A DNA stretch of 64,000 nt. Source: Dehalococcoidia bacterium (lineage in GTDB: Bacteria; Chloroflexota; Dehalococcoidia; GIF9; UBA5629). Below, piece after piece: positions 43,622 to 53,842 of the stretch. The stretch spans positions 448,001-512,000 of the forward strand of contig JBEKIW010000001.1 in NCBI GenBank assembly GCA_050011565.1. The letters run 5' to 3'. The translations under genes and the position numbers were made by a program. The first letter of the stretch is position 1. Each line of letters opens with the position of its first letter. The notes below the pieces were generated by a model. It made no database searches. It saw nothing but the letters and a program-made list of their open reading frames with translations, and was not told the origin of the DNA.

Positions 43622-45469
43622 TTACTTGGCGCCGATTGAGGCCGCGATTTCTGACATCCCCAGGCTTTCCAAGCGTTTTTTTGAGGGCTTACCGGTAGCT
43701 TTGTCCCAGTCTCTGAGCGCATAGTACTCGGGCAGCATCTTCTCCATATTGGGCACATGGCCCTCTGTTCCGCCCTCGGGTATAGGCTTCATGATTAGCT
43801 CGGGCAGCACGTCATCTTTCGCAGAGATGCCGAGCTTGCAGGAAAGGGCTCGCTGCAACTGGAAGATACGTTCCCCCGCTCTCAACAACTGCTCCAGGTC
43901 CGTATTCCAGCCTGTAGAGGCATTGACCATAGCGGTTATCAAGGTAACTGGTATAATTGCCCACACGCAAATACCGATGGAATCGCTTACAGCTACCCAG
44001 TTCTGGCTTCTTTCTACCATCGCTGCTTTATCATCAGCCCAGCGGTCTGTTATATCAAAAGCCAGGTCAGGATGCCCTGTGCCGCCATCTATCAGGTAAC
44101 CGGGGCTTTTGTTGTTGTCGGCACCGCGTGGCGAGGTGGCGTAGATAAGCCCCATGCTATGGTATGCCCTTGGGTCATGCATCGGAATCTCGAGGCCCTT
44201 CGTCTGGACAGCCTCTCCAATAGGCCGGCCGTATTTTTGAGCCATGCGCTTCGTCCCGCCGGCCAGTATCGCACCGAAGCCCTGGTTCTTGCCGATAAGG
44301 TGCAAAAGCTTAACAGCGGCATCGACATTACCCCAGGTGAGTTTGAGGCCACCAGTTTCCTTCTCCGAAATTACACCTAAGTTATAGAGATAAAATGCAT
44401 AGCCGGCACTGGCGCCACTACTTATAGTGTCGAACCCATAAGCGTTACACATCTCGTTAAGGTAAACAGCGGTGGACATATCAAGGTCCAGCCCCATCAT
44501 CGCCCCCAGAGCAATCAATGTTTCATATTCTGGCCCTTCGACCCTATCATATAAATGCTTTCCTTCTTTGATTTGTAATATCTTGCGGCAACGTATCGGG
44601 CAGCTGTAACAAGCGGTGCTGTCGGTCTGAAATTTCTCAAACTGCTCGGCGCCGCTTATTTTGGTTGCTTGCGGCAGGGTAGGGGCAGTGTAGTAATTGG
44701 TTGGGCCATCGCCATAGGCAATCGCAGAATCGACCCATGAGGCTGTGCCGCCTTCATGCATCCACTGCGTAAAAAATCCCTCTTTCACTTCCTGCATAGC
44801 CTGGCGCGCCAACTCACGAAACTTTTTTGAATCGTGCATGGGTAGTTTCATTTTGCCGCGCACTGCGATAGCTTTGACCTTCTTTGAGCCCATAACACAT
44901 CCCAGCCCAGCCCGGCCCAAGCAGTGGCCATACTCTGACATGATATTGCCATAAAGTACCAGGTTCTCCGAGGCGGGGCCGATACATGCAATTTGTGTGC
45001 GATTATCTCCAAATGTCTTCTTAATTTCCTCCTGAGTCTTATAGGTATCCTTGCCCCAAAGGCCATTAGCATCTTTAAGTTCCGCAGTGCCGTCCTTAAC
45101 ATAAATATACACCGGTTTAGCCGACTTGCCTTTGAGTATAATGCCATCGTAGCCGGCGTTTTTAAGTTCAGCGCCGAACCAGGCGCTGGCATTGGCGTCA
45201 CCATAGTGCCCGGTATAAGGTGATTTAGTAGCTCCACCCCATCGGCTAACACTGGGACCGCTGGTACCATTGAGTAGACCCGGCATCAGGATAAGCGGGT
45301 TATCAGGTCCCAGCGGGTCGGTTTTCTCATCGACCATGTCATACAGGTAGCGAGCAGCAAGGCCGGTGCTGCCGATGAAATCGCGGGCATATTTCTCATT
45401 CAGAGGTTCATCGATAAGCGTACCTTGGCCAAGGTCAGCTACCAGGATTTTGCCATGATATCCGTTCAT
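43622..45469 (-). CDS. aor: Tungsten aldehyde:ferredoxin oxidoreductase family protein
   Basis: KSPYTG, CIGPASEN, GRAGLGCVMGSK, CYSCPIRC, GPEYET, HDPR, DSIGIC. Confidence 0.92.
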   Translation of the reverse strand: MNGYHGKILVADLGQGTLIDEPLNEKYARDFIGSTGLAARYLYDMVDEKTDPLGPDNPLILMPGLLNGTSGPSVSRWGGATKSPYTGHYGDANASAWFGAELKNAGYDGIILKGKSAKPVYIYVKDGTAELKDANGLWGKDTYKTQEEIKKTFGDNRTQIACIGPASENLVLYGNIMSEYGHCLGRAGLGCVMGSKKVKAIAVRGKMKLPMHDSKKFRELARQAMQEVKEGFFTQWMHEGGTASWVDSAIAYGDGPTNYYTAPTLPQATKISGAEQFEKFQTDSTACYSCPIRCRKILQIKEGKHLYDRVEGPEYETLIALGAMMGLDLDMSTAVYLNEMCNAYGFDTISSGASAGYAFYLYNLGVISEKETGGLKLTWGNVDAAVKLLHLIGKNQGFGAILAGGTKRMAQKYGRPIGEAVQTKGLEIPMHDPRAYHSMGLIYATSPRGADNNKSPGYLIDGGTGHPDLAFDITDRWADDKAAMVERSQNWVAVSDSIGICVWAIIPVTLITAMVNASTGWNTDLEQLLRAGERIFQLQRALSCKLGISAKDDVLPELIMKPIPEGGTEGHVPNMEKMLPEYYALRDWDKATGKPSKKRLESLGMSEIAASIGAK

Positions 45470-45490: not shown

Positions 45491-46666
45491 TTAAAAGTCA
45501 ATGCTGTTACCTTCGTAGGCGTAGCTGAAGATTTTGCCCAGGTCCTCCCCCTCGGGAATGCGGGCTACGGTCATGGTCATAGCCTCGTTCAAGGCTCTGT
45601 CTATCAGCCCGGGAATTGATTCATCGTACTTCGTCTTGTCGATGTCGCATTCCTTGACACACAATGGTTGACCGATTTCCTTGGCTAGTGCCCGGATTTT
45701 GGCGACCAGGGCTTTAGCACATTCCTTGTCAGAACTGGCGGATGAAATGCGGCAATAGCGGGCTATCTCCGCATACTTGGCCGTCGTTTCCTGGGAGCCG
45801 TTTATAAGGTATTCCATAGTATAGGGCAGGAAGAGACCCACGGTGCGTCCATGAGGCACATGGAAAATTGCACCCAGGGCGTGGCCGGTGCTATGGCCCA
45901 ATCCGGCCATAGAATTACCGAAGGACATTCCACCGAGTATGGCGGCGTTCTGCATTTCCTTACGTGCCTCAAGATTGCCCCCATTTTTATAAGCTTCAGG
46001 CAGATATTCGAAAGCTTTCCGCGTGGCAATCAATCCCGGCCCCTCTGTGATACTGGTACCCCAGCTTGAAACGTATCCCTCAATGGCGTGAGTGAGTACA
46101 TCCATGCCAGTATCGGCTGTGATTTGCGGTGGCATGCCAACAATCATAGCAGGGTCAAGGATGGCGACATCTGGCATACATTCTATATTCATCATGCTGA
46201 TTTTACGCTGCTCTTTCGTGTCGGTGAGTATTATCATTGATGTAGCTTCAGACCCCGTGCCGCTGGTGGTGGGAATGGCCATGAGCCTGGCCTTGGCTCT
46301 GAAATTGTAAGTATCGGAGGCAATCATACAATCCGGCTCCAGGTCCGGTCGTACCAGCAGGATAATAATAGCTTTGGCAGCGTCCATGCATGAACCACCG
46401 CCTATTCCGATGACCCAGTCTGGCTGGTACTTTCCTACAGCTACACCTCCCTTTTTAATCGTATTAAGTGAAGGCTCTGGTTCTATTTCATTAAAAATTT
46501 GCCATTTGATATTTACTGCATCCAATTGGTCGGTAACCAGCTTTGTTAACCCGAGTTTTACGATGTTTTTGTCTGTGACAATGAAAGCTTTTTTACCCTG
46601 AATCTGTGCTATGTACTCAAGAGAATTATCACCATAGGCGATAAATGGGCATGAAAAAGTCCACAT
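45491..46666 (-). CDS. Iron-containing alcohol dehydrogenase
   Basis: GGGSCMDAAK, IPTTSGTGSEAT, DVLTHAIE, GLGHSTGH, HVPHG. Confidence 0.93.
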   Translation of the reverse strand: MWTFSCPFIAYGDNSLEYIAQIQGKKAFIVTDKNIVKLGLTKLVTDQLDAVNIKWQIFNEIEPEPSLNTIKKGGVAVGKYQPDWVIGIGGGSCMDAAKAIIILLVRPDLEPDCMIASDTYNFRAKARLMAIPTTSGTGSEATSMIILTDTKEQRKISMMNIECMPDVAILDPAMIVGMPPQITADTGMDVLTHAIEGYVSSWGTSITEGPGLIATRKAFEYLPEAYKNGGNLEARKEMQNAAILGGMSFGNSMAGLGHSTGHALGAIFHVPHGRTVGLFLPYTMEYLINGSQETTAKYAEIARYCRISSASSDKECAKALVAKIRALAKEIGQPLCVKECDIDKTKYDESIPGLIDRALNEAMTMTVARIPEGEDLGKIFSYAYEGNSIDF

Positions 46667-46706: not shown

Positions 46707-47114
46707 TTAGTCCAGCCACTCAGTTGGCACGCGTGTGGTGCTGGTGGTCAACTCGTTAGCCGCCTTGACGTAGCGCATGATTTTGGCCATATTTCCTGAG
46801 AGTTTGGCTTGTCTGGTAATCATAGCCTTTATAGGGTCGAGCTCTTTTGTAGCTATTCTCTTCCAGACAGGATATGAGGCTGACATCGTGAATTCAGGTT
46901 TGTATTTGCTGGGATCGGTAACAATTTCTATTTTTCGGCATTTGCCGTGATAAAGGTCTATGTACTGATAACCCAGCTCTTTGACCGGGCCGCCTGCCTC
47001 CATAATAAAGTAAAAATCACCCTCCCAGGTTTTGGCTGCCTCCTCGTATGTCTTGTTGTTATTTATCGCCTCCTTGTATAAATCGCCCCATTCTTGAGTG
47101 AAGAACTTCGCCAT
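46707..47114 (-). CDS. SCP2 sterol/lipid-binding domain protein
   Basis: WEGDFYF...W..I....LDPIKAMITRQAKLSGNMAKIMR. Confidence 0.82.
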   Translation of the reverse strand: MAKFFTQEWGDLYKEAINNNKTYEEAAKTWEGDFYFIMEAGGPVKELGYQYIDLYHGKCRKIEIVTDPSKYKPEFTMSASYPVWKRIATKELDPIKAMITRQAKLSGNMAKIMRYVKAANELTTSTTRVPTEWLD

Positions 47115-47600: not shown

Positions 47601-48416
47601 ATGGGACGACCTTTATGGTTTGTCGGACTTATCAAGAAAGCTTTCCCCGCCCGGTTTCTAGCCGCCAAACTGACCAGATTGCCATTGATTGGCACGGCGA
47701 TTGACCGCTGTTTTTTTGCCGGTGACGACATAATTTACCTGCCCAAAGACCGGGTAATTCCCCTGAATATATCCGTTGATAGGCCTGATCAGGTGGTATT
47801 GCCATCTCAGGTGGTAGGGCATTTTATTGAGAAGGCAAATTATCACTGGATTATGAATACCTGCATCTGCCGTGATGCCTCTAAGTGCCAAGACTACCCG
47901 ATTGACCTCGGCTGTCTCTTACTGGGAGATGCGGTATTAGGTATTAATCCGGAACTCGGCCGCCGTGTGACTAAAGAGGAGGCACATGACCATGTACGGC
48001 GCTGCCGGGAAGCCGGCTTGGTTCATCTCATCGGCCGCAATAAGCTTGACACAGTGTGGCTCGGTATTGGGCCAGGTAACAGATTGCTCACTATATGCAG
48101 CTGCTGCCCCTGCTGTTGTCTGTGGCGGATACTACCTCATATCGCTCCTCAAATTAGCGCCAAAACAACGAGAATGCCTGGGGTTAAGGTGACTGTTAAC
48201 GGGCAATGCACCGGCTGCGGGACCTGTGCTCAAGGCGTATGTTTTATTGATGCTATCCATCTGGTCGACAATCATGCTGTCAGAAGTGATGACTGTCGTG
48301 GTTGTGGTCGCTGTGTTGATATCTGCCCCCAGGGAGCAATTCAAATTTCGATTGACGAGGAACAATTCGTAGAAAAGACAATCGAACGCCTGGCTCCTTT
48401 GGTTGATGTTTCGTGA
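47601..48416 (+). CDS. 4Fe-4S dicluster ferredoxin-domain protein
   Basis: CICR, ICSCCPCCC, CTGCGTC...C, CRGCGRCVDICP. Confidence 0.88.
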   Translation: MGRPLWFVGLIKKAFPARFLAAKLTRLPLIGTAIDRCFFAGDDIIYLPKDRVIPLNISVDRPDQVVLPSQVVGHFIEKANYHWIMNTCICRDASKCQDYPIDLGCLLLGDAVLGINPELGRRVTKEEAHDHVRRCREAGLVHLIGRNKLDTVWLGIGPGNRLLTICSCCPCCCLWRILPHIAPQISAKTTRMPGVKVTVNGQCTGCGTCAQGVCFIDAIHLVDNHAVRSDDCRGCGRCVDICPQGAIQISIDEEQFVEKTIERLAPLVDVS

Positions 48417-48453: not shown

Positions 48454-48482
48454 CTGCGGCGAACCGCCGCAGTCTAGATAGT
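48454..48482 (-). promoter_or_regulatory. Putative SECIS for the C-terminal UGA (48483-48485)
   Basis: CTGCGGC-ggttc-GCCGCAG on the minus strand; GT at +19/+20. Confidence 0.65.
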
Positions 48483-49184
48483 TCAGCCGCCGCCGAAACC
48501 CACCTTGACCTCGTCTCCAATTACCAGAATAGGAACTATGCCTTTACCGTTCGAAAGACGCATTACCTCCCGGACAACCTTCGGGTTGTCCTGAGTGCTT
48601 AACTCGTTATAAGGAACACCACGCTCTTCAAGGTCCTGCTTAGCTGCAGCACAAAAGGGACAACCTGGCTTTGTGTATATAGTTACCTGTCTTGGCACAT
48701 GAACAGTATTAATCTTGGTATCAAGTTCGTAGAGCTTCTCGATGACGAACTGGACATAATGGTCGCATTTTTCCTTCGAGATACCCGATTCCTGGAACCG
48801 TTGGTATCCCCCGGGTTCAGAAAAATCGATCCCAACCAAATTGAGGCAAATAATAGAGCCGAATTTCTCGTTGAATTCCCTGATAAGTTCACTCGCGTTT
48901 TGACGTGCATCTAATCGTGCTTGCTTGGTCTTCTGTTTATCTGTTGCGTAATTACCATGGCGCAAACCGAGGCAAATTGCTGCAGCAGATATGGCGCCGC
49001 ATGGTGCTTGCTGTTGCCCACCTATGCCACCTGTGAATGCGGTGCCCGACCAAAGAAGGTCTTCGTTGCCCAGTCCGTAAGTTTCCCACATAACTTGCAG
49101 GACGCTCGGACCTCAGTGGTAACCCCGATGCATCAGTTCGATGGCACGCTCCTTAGCCTCCTTAAGCGACATCTTTAATGTCAT
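48474..49184 (-). CDS. C-GCAxxG-C-C family domain fused to a Uxx-star-type glutaredoxin; two probable selenocysteines
   Basis: GAGAGG RBS and ATG 49184: ...RGYH-UGA-GPSVLQVMWE...PCGAISAA...IC...KC...YTKPGCPFC...VGFGGG-UGA-TI-stop. Confidence 0.8.
49070..49112 (-). promoter_or_regulatory. Putative SECIS for the N-terminal UGA (49113-49115)
   Basis: GTCCG..CCTGCA-agtta-TGTGGG..CGGAC; GT at +19/+20. Confidence 0.6.
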
Positions 49185-49400
49185 GATTGCCTCTCTTCTA
49201 TTGCTGTTGAGTATGCGACGGTTTGTAAGTATGTTAATTCTACTACTTAATAAGTGTCAAGGTCTGAAAGAGTTGCGGGTATTCTGTGCAGACGTACGCG
49301 GGTTTTCGTATGGTACTAGTGAGCGAAAGCGCGTAGAATGTAATTAATGATAGCACAGACTTTAGGCTACTAAAATATAGTCATATAAAGGAGGAAAAGG

Positions 49401-49703
49401 ATGGAAGTCAGAGTTGCATCTACAAAAGACGTGTCCACCGGGAAAATGATAGGTATTGAAAATAGTGGCCAAAAAATAGTTGTCGCCAACGTAAACGGAG
49501 CATATTATGCGGTGGGAAATATTTGTACACATAGAGGTTGCAAGCTTTCGGATGGGACTCTAAATGGAGAAAAAGTTCAGTGTCCCTGTCATGGTTCAAT
49601 TTTTGATATAAGAACCGGAGCAGTTATAAAAGGACCGGCAACGAATCCTGAGAAATCTTTCAAGGTAAGAGTTGATGGAGACGCGATATTAGTTACCATA
49701 TAA
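49401..49703 (+). CDS. Rieske-type 2Fe-2S ferredoxin
   Basis: CTHRGC...CPCHGSIFD. Confidence 0.92.
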   Translation: MEVRVASTKDVSTGKMIGIENSGQKIVVANVNGAYYAVGNICTHRGCKLSDGTLNGEKVQCPCHGSIFDIRTGAVIKGPATNPEKSFKVRVDGDAILVTI

Positions 49704-50354: not shown

Positions 50355-51248
50355 TTAAGGTGGTGTCACACTTACTGAAATCTGATAACCCTCTTTTGCA
50401 CCATTCTGAACCAATACATCGAAATCCCGAACCTCACCAGGCTTAAATGCTGCAGGTTGCAAGTCGATAGATCCTGGCTGATTAAATGTCCTACCCTCCA
50501 ACCCTTCTACTTCGTATTGTACCCAGATGGTTACATCAAGAGATGCTTGTGTAACTTCACCTGTGTTCTTAACTTTCCCACGAACATAAGTAAAAGTACC
50601 AGCTGGTGGATGCTGCTCAATTACTAGACGGTGCTCAATTATTTGAATCTCTGATTTTGATAGAGGCGCAATTTTCGTGAAGTGGGCAACCAAATCCTTG
50701 TTTGAGTCCATAGTTACGTTAATAACCAGCGATATGTCTGTAGAAGCACCACTCCAATGACTAAATGTGTAGCCGCTCGATGGGCTAGCCGTTACGCTTA
50801 TCTGTTCGCCTTGCTGGTACTGACCACTTGATGGAGATACAGAACCAGCACCAGAAGGGTTGACACTTGTACTGAGAGCGAAGGTAGCCGGAGGAAGTGT
50901 TCCTGCTGGGGGCGAGGGCTGAGCTGTAGAAGGAGGGGTGCTAGGTGCAGTACCTTGCGAAGTCATGCCAACAGCACAGGCTATTCCACCTATCAAAAGG
51001 ACGAGCGTCATCACGCCAAGACCCACGATAAGCCACGGACTCTTCTTTTTGCGCTGGTTTTCTATCTGCTGGCCATAGCCAGCTTGCTGCTGATGCGCCT
51101 GCCAACCAACTGATTGTTGCTGATATTGTGATGGAGGTTGGGGTTGCTGTTGCGCTGGCCAATTTAGCTGTGTTCTGCAATGACCGCAGAACCTGACCCC
51201 AAAAGCAACTGGAGCACCACAGTTAGGACACTGATACCACTGCTGCAT
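50355..51248 (-). CDS. Zinc-ribbon/Gln-Pro-rich single-pass membrane protein with InlB-B-like repeat and Ig-like domain
   Basis: CPNC...CGHC, Q/P-rich linker, TM helix, VTASPSSGYTFSHWSG, VRGKVKNTG. Confidence 0.75.
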   Translation of the reverse strand: MQQWYQCPNCGAPVAFGVRFCGHCRTQLNWPAQQQPQPPSQYQQQSVGWQAHQQQAGYGQQIENQRKKKSPWLIVGLGVMTLVLLIGGIACAVGMTSQGTAPSTPPSTAQPSPPAGTLPPATFALSTSVNPSGAGSVSPSSGQYQQGEQISVTASPSSGYTFSHWSGASTDISLVINVTMDSNKDLVAHFTKIAPLSKSEIQIIEHRLVIEQHPPAGTFTYVRGKVKNTGEVTQASLDVTIWVQYEVEGLEGRTFNQPGSIDLQPAAFKPGEVRDFDVLVQNGAKEGYQISVSVTPP

Positions 51249-51852: not shown

Positions 51853-53283
51853 ATGGTTTTTAACATAACAGTCAAGAATTTCAAATCGATATCCTCTATT
51901 GACTTGGCACTCAAAGAAGGTTTGAACATTCTGATTGGCCCTAACGGGTCAGGTAAGACTTGCATACTCACTTCACTAAAATTCGTGCGTGATTTGTTTG
52001 TATTAGGGGCCGCACAAGCGACGGCAAGAAATGGAGGAGCCACACGTATATTCCGAAGAGGAGAGGATACAGTCTCATTCTCCATAGAACACGATTATGG
52101 TGACAGAGTATATCGAAAACGAAAATGGCCATGCACATTCTCTTGGAGAGTTGAGATTTCTCAGATGGGGCCAGAGAAGATTGCCGCCATAAAGTGTGAG
52201 GACGTGAGTATATATGCTAATGTGCGAGGCAAGCAAAAGCTTCTATTTCGCTTGAATGTTGACCGAGGAAATCCACAAAGCACTAAAACAATACTGCACC
52301 TATCTGAACCCCATGAATTCGGGCGTGACCTATTCTCACGGTGGAATAGGATGTTTTCATCCAAGTCAAAGAAAGACATACATAGTGAATTTGAGGAAAG
52401 AATGCTGCGGCTTATTATTAGACGGGCAAGAGTACGACCAGATGAGTCCGTGTTTCCACTCATTATGAGATTTGATGACAAACTTCAACATTTATATAAC
52501 CTCTTCTTCTATCTTAATGAATATAATATTCACCCTGATACCGCGCGACAATCCGCAGAGCGTCTGCCTTTCGCTAAAATGCAGCCAAATGGAGATGGGG
52601 TAGCTGAAGTAATCGACGCATTGGAGAAGAGGAGCTTTGATAGAATAGAGTTGGCCCGATATTATGGTATGGAAAGCTTTATGGGTTACGATTACCCCAT
52701 GACTGATTTTCCATATTATGCATACCCTCATCGTTATGATTACAGATTTCGGAGATACACTCCTACGGAACTGCAGAGAGTCTACAAACAGGCCTTCGAA
52801 AACATTAACAAGGAATTATCTGCAGCAGTAAAACCTATTGAAAGTGTAAGTGTTAAGATAGATGAGACTAACGGCAAGCGATTCGTCGTCTTTCGGGCAG
52901 GCAAGGAAACATTTTATCCGCAGGAAGTTTCTGACGGAACCATAAAATGGTTGTGTATTTTGGTTAGCATTTTTGTTCCATATTCCTCGGTTTATATACT
53001 CGAGGAGCCGGAGAACTTCCTTCACCCTTGGATGCAGCAACGATTAATCAGCATGATGCGAGAACATGCGAAGATAAACAATGCTATTTTCGTACTGGCA
53101 TCTCACTCGTCTACAGTACTCAATTCGGCGTTTGCCGAAGAGGTTCTTATTGTAAGTCAAACCAAGGATGGTACGAAAATCAACGAAATTGCTGATAAAG
53201 AAGAAATAGAGCGTGTTCTTCTGGAATCTGACTTCCGTCTTGGTGATTTCTGGGTAAGTGGCGCATTAGGTGGAGTTCCTTAG
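51853..53283 (+). CDS. AAA_21/ABC-type ATPase
   Basis: IGPNGSGKT, VSDGT signature, ILEEPENFLHP, ASHS. Confidence 0.88.
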   Translation: MVFNITVKNFKSISSIDLALKEGLNILIGPNGSGKTCILTSLKFVRDLFVLGAAQATARNGGATRIFRRGEDTVSFSIEHDYGDRVYRKRKWPCTFSWRVEISQMGPEKIAAIKCEDVSIYANVRGKQKLLFRLNVDRGNPQSTKTILHLSEPHEFGRDLFSRWNRMFSSKSKKDIHSEFEERMLRLIIRRARVRPDESVFPLIMRFDDKLQHLYNLFFYLNEYNIHPDTARQSAERLPFAKMQPNGDGVAEVIDALEKRSFDRIELARYYGMESFMGYDYPMTDFPYYAYPHRYDYRFRRYTPTELQRVYKQAFENINKELSAAVKPIESVSVKIDETNGKRFVVFRAGKETFYPQEVSDGTIKWLCILVSIFVPYSSVYILEEPENFLHPWMQQRLISMMREHAKINNAIFVLASHSSTVLNSAFAEEVLIVSQTKDGTKINEIADKEEIERVLLESDFRLGDFWVSGALGGVP

Positions 53284-53284
53284 C

Positions 53285-53842
53285 ATGCGTAAGGTTGGCG
53301 TTATTGTAGATGGGCAAGGTGATTATAACAGTCTAAAGGCTCGATTTGTAGAAAATTGTAGGATTCTAAAGACAGACGGGCCGAGAAGCCATACTACTCC
53401 CATTGAAGCTATTGTGTTAGGTTCTCGCAAACAAATCTCCATGCTCAGGGCTTGCGGTTGCAACAAAGTAGTAATCCTAACTGATTTTGAAATGAGAACG
53501 GATGACTATGATCACTTCGTTGCTACGTTAAGAAGCCGATTAACTGCTCAGTATGCTGGAAATCGAGTCACTGCAGCTGTCCCAAATAGGATGATAGAAA
53601 ACTGGTATCTAGCTGATATTGAACAGTTGTCGAGTCAGAAATCCTTTATCATGAACAATTTAAGGCAGAAGAATTACGAAGGTTCGAATGGCAAAGATGA
53701 GCTTAAGAAGTGTTTTACAGGCAAACACTCATATAGCGAAACAATACACGGCCCCCAAATGTTCGAGATTCTCAGATTTCACATAGCAAGGCGTAACAGT
53801 GGCTCCCTGCATGACTTTCTTCTGATACTTGAAGGAAACTGA
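53285..53842 (+). CDS. DUF4276-like (TOPRIM-like) protein
   Basis: GVIVDGQGD, ILTDFE, MIENWYLAD, YSETIHG, SLHDF; coupled to the ATPase. Confidence 0.7.
   Translation: MRKVGVIVDGQGDYNSLKARFVENCRILKTDGPRSHTTPIEAIVLGSRKQISMLRACGCNKVVILTDFEMRTDDYDHFVATLRSRLTAQYAGNRVTAAVPNRMIENWYLADIEQLSSQKSFIMNNLRQKNYEGSNGKDELKKCFTGKHSYSETIHGPQMFEILRFHIARRNSGSLHDFLLILEGN

Follow-up and report, generated by a model that had tools for sequence, protein, structure and literature searches.

The 64,000-nucleotide stretch of a Dehalococcoidia bacterium genome analysed here (the window; assembly GCA_050011565.1, contig JBEKIW010000001.1, positions 448,001 to 512,000) carries on its reverse strand, at 48474..49184, one gene that very probably (about 85% in our estimate) encodes a cytoplasmic selenoprotein of 236 residues belonging to NCBIfam family NF045501, with two in-frame UGA codons decoded as selenocysteine (Sec). 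Comparative evidence indicates that SelB and tRNA-Sec read both UGAs as Sec, the first by means of a Sec insertion sequence (SECIS) lying inside the coding sequence and the second by means of a SECIS past the stop codon. The locus is an ordinary member of a known, curated and published selenoprotein family; it is not a new one. The original prediction, made from the letters of the window alone, had taken the fusion of its two domains to be undescribed, and this was wrong: the fusion is already curated and in print, because NF045501 models exactly this fusion and PMC13188914 (Appl Environ Microbiol 2026) lists the 'HUGP/GUXX-star fusion selenoprotein' with two Sec, crediting it to Haft & Tolstoy 2025 (mSystems 10:e0141724). 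In its coordinates and reading frame the prediction was exact (ATG at 49184 to TAG at 48474, TGAs at codons 24 and 234), it placed a ribosome-binding stretch and an ATG 5' of the first UGA, and the 236-residue protein with Sec near both termini that it described is borne out by the full-length match to NF045501 and by the conservation of both TGAs. The accuracy of this sequence-only call speaks for the method. The parts of the gene, all on the reverse strand, are as follows.

48474..49184, reverse strand: entire coding sequence, 236 codons for the two-Sec protein, with its TAG stop at 48474-48476
49184-49182, reverse strand: ATG start, opening the 236-codon readthrough frame
49190..49195, reverse strand: purine-rich, Shine-Dalgarno-like GAGAGG, 5 nt 5' of the ATG, from sequence inspection
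49113..49115, reverse strand: UGA codon 24, predicted Sec, in the context R-G-Y-H-U-G-P-S-V
48483..48485, reverse strand: UGA codon 234, predicted Sec, in the context G-F-G-G-G-U-T-I, then TAG
48726..49121, reverse strand: C-GCAxxG-C-C domain, residues 22-153 (PF09719, TIGR01909), with Sec24, Cys62, Cys113 and Cys140 at the four family positions
48507..48686, reverse strand: glutaredoxin-like domain, residues 167-226 (PF00462, NF041212)
48651-48662, reverse strand: CPFC motif, codons 175-178, within the glutaredoxin-like domain
49072..49112, reverse strand: SECIS 1, inside the coding sequence, 41 nt, upper hairpin at 49084-49102
48454..48472, reverse strand: SECIS 2, in the 3' untranslated region directly past the stop, 19 nt, 8-bp stem
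49231..49260, reverse strand: promoter-like TTGACA-18-TAACAT, with 10 of 12 consensus matches in a consensus scan

The second Sec is the third residue from the C-terminus (position 234 of 236, followed by T, I and TAG). Promoter-like sites are weak evidence here, the consensus scan returning 3 in the region where shuffled sequences give 1.6 +/- 1.3. Inspection of the N-terminus of the 236-residue protein by eye showed neither a signal peptide nor a twin-arginine motif, and we infer from its sequence a cytoplasmic location.

The assignment to NF045501, an exception-type curated model of 236 positions, covers the whole protein: residues 1-236 align on model positions 1-236 with 419.2 bits against a cut-off of 325 (E 4.3e-126; 407.5 bits in the six-frame genome search), and the H-U-G-P UGA and the G-U-x-x-stop UGA are both in place. 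The protein has the length, the two domains and the two Sec sites of the family, with no detectable difference. Its N-terminal part belongs to the C-GCAxxG-C-C (seleno)proteins, scoring 50.8 bits with TIGR01909 (cut-off 47.4) and 69.9 bits with PF09719 (cut-off 27), and carries their four Cys positions with Sec at the first. Its C-terminal part is a Uxx-star glutaredoxin-like (seleno)protein domain, as the prediction had it: residues 167-236 align on positions 1-70 of NF041212 with 101.3 bits against a cut-off of 66, PF00462 matches with 51.2 bits, and both the CPxC motif and a Sec third from the C-terminus are found. The Uxx-star proteins (NF041212; families 1-3 NF041114, NF041211 and NF047338) are short, about 70 residues with a CPxC glutaredoxin fold ending in Sec-x-x-stop, and their SECIS necessarily lies past the stop codon, as it does for the second Sec of the window gene; here, by contrast, the Uxx-star version is the C-terminal domain of a longer protein, which stays under the cut-offs of three Uxx-star equivalog or exception families (72.7 vs 100, 67.7 vs 97 and 59.1 vs 72 bits).

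Conservation carries the case for both Sec codons. When NF045501 was searched in 61 genomes, the window's own (2.0 Mb in 8 contigs, 99.2% complete) and 60 relatives, 14 exceeded the cut-off, and in every one of these the match contains two in-frame TGAs, no more and no fewer. The window's genus, with 14 genomes in the set, accounts for 11 of them, and other genera of the same family for three. Three further matches are fragments at contig ends. The full-length orthologues, 65-90% identical to the window protein, all retain H-U-G-P and G-G-G-U-[AT]-[IV]-stop, and all 14 keep both TGAs and both hairpins, so that the arrangement is more than chance. Conservation at the protein level, with synonymous variation, extends in every one of them to the 23 codons that precede the first TGA and to the U-x-x tail. 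The prediction had placed the first UGA at the first conserved Cys of the family, and an alignment of the window's N-terminal domain with 19 Cys-type C-GCAxxG-C-C paralogues from related genomes and five HUGP proteins agrees: the Sec24 column is Cys in 19/19 paralogues, and across the 25 sequences the columns of Cys62 and Cys113 never vary, with conservation of 90% or more at Cys140.

These observations bear directly on a simpler account, in which the 202-residue open reading frame between the two TGAs (48483-49091) is the true product and the TGAs are ordinary stops or nonsense mutations. Translation table 11 does yield this frame, and a public protein search (324 matches at E <= 1e-10) appears to agree with it, 119 of the best 120 homologues being annotated at 200-202 residues, which is the stretch between the TGAs. 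We consider this account very improbable: its product would lack the first family Cys, both flanking segments are conserved as protein in the 14 orthologues, both TGAs are retained in every full-length copy, and the two hairpins show, respectively, frozen codons (SECIS 1) and covariation (SECIS 2), as described below. The public entries are short because automatic gene calling stops at TGA, and the gene is thus mis-annotated almost everywhere in public metagenome data. Names among the listed homologues include 'glutaredoxin 3', which is the name given by the Joint Genome Institute (JGI) to many truncated copies, 'C_GCAxxG_C_C family probable redox protein', 'C-GCAxxG-C-C family protein' and 'hypothetical protein'. 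No all-Cys full-length fusion occurs among the best 120 of the 324 homologues.

One 234-residue public entry (P0003) has W at both sites, having been translated with TGA as Trp, and could be taken to mean that the organism reads TGA as Trp or Gly throughout and that the protein contains no selenium. Such an alternative genetic code is hardly credible, and we regard it as excluded because UCA occurs as an anticodon only on tRNA-Sec among the 48 tRNAs found by ARAGORN in the window's genome, tRNA-Trp occurs with CCA only, and TGA terminates 195 of the 678 open frames of at least 350 codons and is therefore an ordinary stop. Some orthologues moreover use TGA as the true stop two codons past the Sec codon, and the genome holds a complete set of genes for Sec insertion, on which the prediction depended, each over its cut-off.

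Contig C4: selB, 368 bits against a cut-off of 242
Contig C4: tRNA-Sec, 72.1 bits against a cut-off of 47
Contig C4: selA, 572 bits against a cut-off of 268
Contig C4: selD, which itself contains a single in-frame TGA, 396 bits against a cut-off of 125

The four are clustered at G000:C4:46992-52951 (G000 being the window's genome), and the in-frame TGA of selD suggests that SelD of this genome is itself probably a Sec-containing protein. Elsewhere in the genome, two small glutaredoxin/thioredoxin-like genes have a TGA in the active site, T-U-P-Y-C at G000:C4:171026-171226 (reverse strand) and T-U-P-W-C at G000:C2:356889-357095 (forward strand); both probably encode selenoproteins of the UxxC type.

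SECIS-like hairpins for both UGAs were part of the prediction and are indeed found. In PMC13188914 (Fig. 2 legend), bacterial SECIS (bSECIS) elements are constrained to a loop of 3-9 nt with a G in its first two positions, an upper stem of 4-16 bp, a distance of 16-37 nt from UGA to loop and a minimum free energy of -7.5 kcal/mol or lower, and both hairpins fall within these limits. The upper stem of SECIS 1 is 7 bp long and is capped by the 5-nt loop AGUUA, whose second position is G and which starts 17 nt past the UGA; the element folds with -16.1 kcal/mol (z -2.82; equalled by 1 of 200 shuffles). In SECIS 2 a stem of 8 bp is capped by the loop GUU, with its G in first position, starting 18 nt past the UGA, and the element folds with -13.7 kcal/mol (z -4.26; none of 200 shuffles as good). 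Across the 14 orthologues the two elements are conserved in different ways. In SECIS 2, the share of paired cells is 90.2%, and sliding the partner leaves 60.7% at best; both sides have changed in compensation in 4 of the 8 pairs (9 cells), and the covariation score of 0.250 is reached by none of 500 shuffles. In SECIS 1 the upper stem and loop are invariant in all 14. Just 5 of 87 invariant degenerate protein columns use a single codon in every orthologue, V28, L29, Q30, V31 and E34, and these five coincide exactly with the SECIS 1 hairpin.

Searched against Rfam with E values up to 10, the region matched no family apart from an astrovirus frameshift element, which we dismiss as a chance match (15.6 bits against a gathering score of 70). 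Useful models of bacterial SECIS elements are lacking in Rfam.

At three orthologous loci (L053, L055, identical to L031, and L037) the tail reads U-x-x-TGA, the true stop being a TGA two codons past the Sec-TGA. Of two UGAs only 9 nt apart, the ribosome must decode the first as Sec and terminate at the second. In these orthologues SECIS spacing presumably decides between Sec and stop.

The fusion is narrowly distributed. In an even sample of the class, 3 of 301 genomes exceeded the NF045501 cut-off, all from the window's family. A pattern-seeded scan of 185,579 species genomes, which overlaps the 61-genome search and is biased toward SECIS-bearing forms by its seeds (V-L-Q-V-M-W-E-[AT] and [EQ]-L-M-H-[RH]-G-Y-H), confirmed 98 loci, 80 of which were kept. 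By their record titles these come from metagenome-assembled genomes (MAGs) of Dehalococcoidia/Chloroflexota and of Thermodesulfobacteriota or 'delta proteobacterium'. They comprise 21 complete fusions, one fusion cut by a contig end, one decayed fusion and 57 stand-alone genes for the N-terminal domain, about 157-180 codons long. The H-x-G-P site is TGA in 79 of the 80 and Cys in one (L064, identical to L034), and codon 234 is TGA in 21/21 complete fusions, two of which (L058 and L109) carry deltaproteobacterial titles. Among the genomes searched, the fusion is thus found mainly in one Dehalococcoidia family and in a few Desulfobacterota-type MAGs; as a selenoprotein, the N-terminal domain is much more often met on its own than in the fusion. 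The stand-alone (HUGP) proteins have the same N-terminal domain and Sec site, with an invariant V-L-Q-V-M-W-E that carries the SECIS, and are 50-69% identical to the window protein over residues 1-155; they end at about residue 157-180, without the glutaredoxin module or the second Sec.

A genus of a sister family shows the fusion in the course of disintegration, at loci L033 (identical to L060), L034 and L035 of relatives G051, G058 and G060. All three have a TAG at the same place in the linker. Past it a decaying, in-frame glutaredoxin remnant follows in L033/L060 (hmmsearch E 1.8e-10 for L060) and, by eye, in L035; in L034 the remnant is lost and Cys replaces Sec24. An origin of many stand-alone forms from one truncation at a shared TAG was considered and rejected, because their stops are mixed (20 TAA, 19 TAG, 19 TGA) and one locus only keeps a glutaredoxin remnant.

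What the protein does can be approached from its predicted architecture: an all-helical C-GCAxxG-C-C domain, with the first Cys replaced by Sec24, is followed by a short glutaredoxin-like domain that has a CPxC motif and a flexible C-terminal tail, G-G-G-Sec-x-x. An AlphaFold2 model built on the 14-sequence alignment has a mean predicted local distance difference test (pLDDT) score of 77.8 and a predicted template modelling (pTM) score of 0.64, and consists of a helical N-terminal domain and a C-terminal glutaredoxin fold, with linker residues 160-164 below pLDDT 50. Foldseek against the PDB returned glutaredoxin, NrdH and thioredoxin-like folds for residues 163-232 and nothing for the N-terminal domain. 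The structural matches of the C-terminal domain to glutaredoxin and NrdH folds have Z of 9-10.5, and among solved structures 7c10 ('Dithiol cGrx1') comes closest in sequence, with E 1.6e-10 and an alignment that reaches as far as the V-G-F immediately preceding the Sec tail.

We favour, tentatively and by analogy, a thiol/selenol redox relay as the most likely role. In animal thioredoxin reductase, electrons travel between an internal dithiol and a further redox centre by way of a Sec in the penultimate region of the flexible C-terminal tail. In the manner of that tail, the glutaredoxin module of the window protein would accept reducing equivalents at its CPxC and pass them to the mobile C-terminal Sec; the tail would then reduce, or swap a ligand with, a centre formed by Sec24, Cys62, Cys113 and Cys140, and the N-terminal domain would act on a substrate. 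The animal enzyme has a flavin/NADPH domain, unlike the window protein, and no homology between the two is claimed.

Several points weigh against this picture, some touching the Sec assignment and others the relay: (i), SECIS 1 shows zero covariation across the 14 orthologues, because its upper stem never varies, and Sec insertion at both sites rests on comparative evidence; (ii), the model gives no confident arrangement of the two domains relative to each other, given its pTM and the low pLDDT of the linker; (iii), the score with the equivalog model of classical Grx3 (TIGR02181) is 48.4 bits against a cut-off of 90, and glutathione dependence is therefore not implied; (iv), the N-terminal domain is far commoner alone than fused and has no adjacent glutaredoxin, which means that in most lineages this domain can dispense with the glutaredoxin module; and (v), no general neighbour recurs across the 21 fusion loci, the best cluster being present at 7 of them, so that no conserved neighbour names a substrate. 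The relay mechanism is one that we only infer.

Since each of the two domains has its Sec near Cys-rich sites, the two selenols might instead bind a soft metal or metalloid such as Hg, As, Se or Cu, in a chaperone or detoxification factor and not in an oxidoreductase. We hold this to be possible if on the unlikely side; no mer, ars or metal-transport genes adjoin the gene in the window, and none belongs to the neighbour clusters conserved among the fusion loci.

A different lead for the N-terminal domain comes from structural comparison. VIA-align against 48,161 chains superposed residues 1-160 on 1h21_A, the split-Soret cytochrome c of Desulfovibrio desulfuricans (Z 9.8, root-mean-square deviation 3.7, 142 aligned residues, 17% identity), the sole entry among the top rows that is not a glutaredoxin; the title of the 1h21 entry names 'a novel iron centre'. 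A broad profile of the family also ranked 1h21_A top among PDB sequences (E 0.09), with the first Cys, the Cys of C-G-A and the last Cys aligned. Sec24, Cys62, Cys113 and Cys140 could accordingly be imagined to bind an iron or iron-sulfur centre like that of the split-Soret non-haem iron domain, with Sec as a cluster ligand and the glutaredoxin module serving cluster redox or delivery. We think this unlikely: the Z score is below the value of about 13 advised for helical folds and the E value is as weak, and a narrower, HUGP-only profile run against PDB sequences missed 1h21 and found nothing relevant. Split-Soret cytochrome c also has haem-binding motifs, whereas the window protein has no CxxCH in its 236 residues, and with this, the profile E value and the Z score the resemblance stays at domain level, a superposable helical domain with three family Cys weakly aligned, and does not make the window protein a split-Soret cytochrome c. 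More doubtful still is the stronger version, in which the C-GCAxxG-C-C domain would be a distant homologue of the split-Soret iron-centre domain, Sec24 a selenolate ligand, and the Sec-tailed glutaredoxin module a built-in reductase or cluster-exchange partner.

The gene looks monocistronic. Its neighbours in the window include genes for an aldehyde:ferredoxin oxidoreductase (AOR) and an Fe-alcohol dehydrogenase (ADH).

43622-45469, reverse strand: AOR
45491-46666, reverse strand: ADH
46707-47114, reverse strand: SCP2 protein
47601-48416, forward strand: 271-residue 4Fe-4S protein, convergent with the selenoprotein gene
49401-49703, forward strand: Rieske ferredoxin, divergent from the selenoprotein gene

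A set of the window's type (4Fe-4S protein, SCP2, ADH and AOR) is present at 5-6 of the 21 fusion loci, and it is a split transketolase pair that is found at seven; the neighbour clusters of the fusion loci consist of transketolase halves, an amidohydrolase, LigT, and AOR/ADH/SCP2. The original prediction had argued from the fusion that its two families work together. The argument from the fusion itself stands; gene neighbourhood adds nothing to it, no glutaredoxin or Uxx-star gene lying within about 6 kb at the 58 loci without an intact fusion, bar one decayed in-frame remnant, and the argument rests on the fusion alone because no such gene is near the stand-alone HUGP loci. In five genomes with a stand-alone HUGP gene, Uxx-star-like matches lie far off (over the cut-off in one of the five, and two-TGA matches in two), and in the window's genome the sole Uxx-star match over the cut-off is the fusion itself.

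Two further loci in the window deserve mention. At 51853-53842 on the forward strand, a gene for a 476-residue AAA_21/AAA_15 ATPase is followed by one for a 190-residue DUF4276 protein; the ATPase matches the NCBIfam defence ATPase MAD3 weakly (84.9 bits against 420), and the pair looks like a small two-gene module of the defence type. At 50355-51248 on the reverse strand lies a gene for a protein of 297 residues that has a zinc ribbon at its N-terminus, a domain resembling the InlB B-repeat, and no NCBIfam match.

The gene offers a clean natural case of two SECIS solutions in one mRNA, one inside the coding sequence with frozen synonymous sites and the other past the stop. If the resemblance to split-Soret cytochrome c were to reflect true kinship, the two domains together would form a self-contained Fe-S redox unit tuned by selenium. 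The C-GCAxxG-C-C family in general, beyond its Sec form, may be related to the split-Soret non-haem iron domain, in which case 1h21 would provide a structural template for it. This double selenoprotein is a reasonable target for biochemical work on how Dehalococcoidia use Sec in redox reactions or in the handling of metals.

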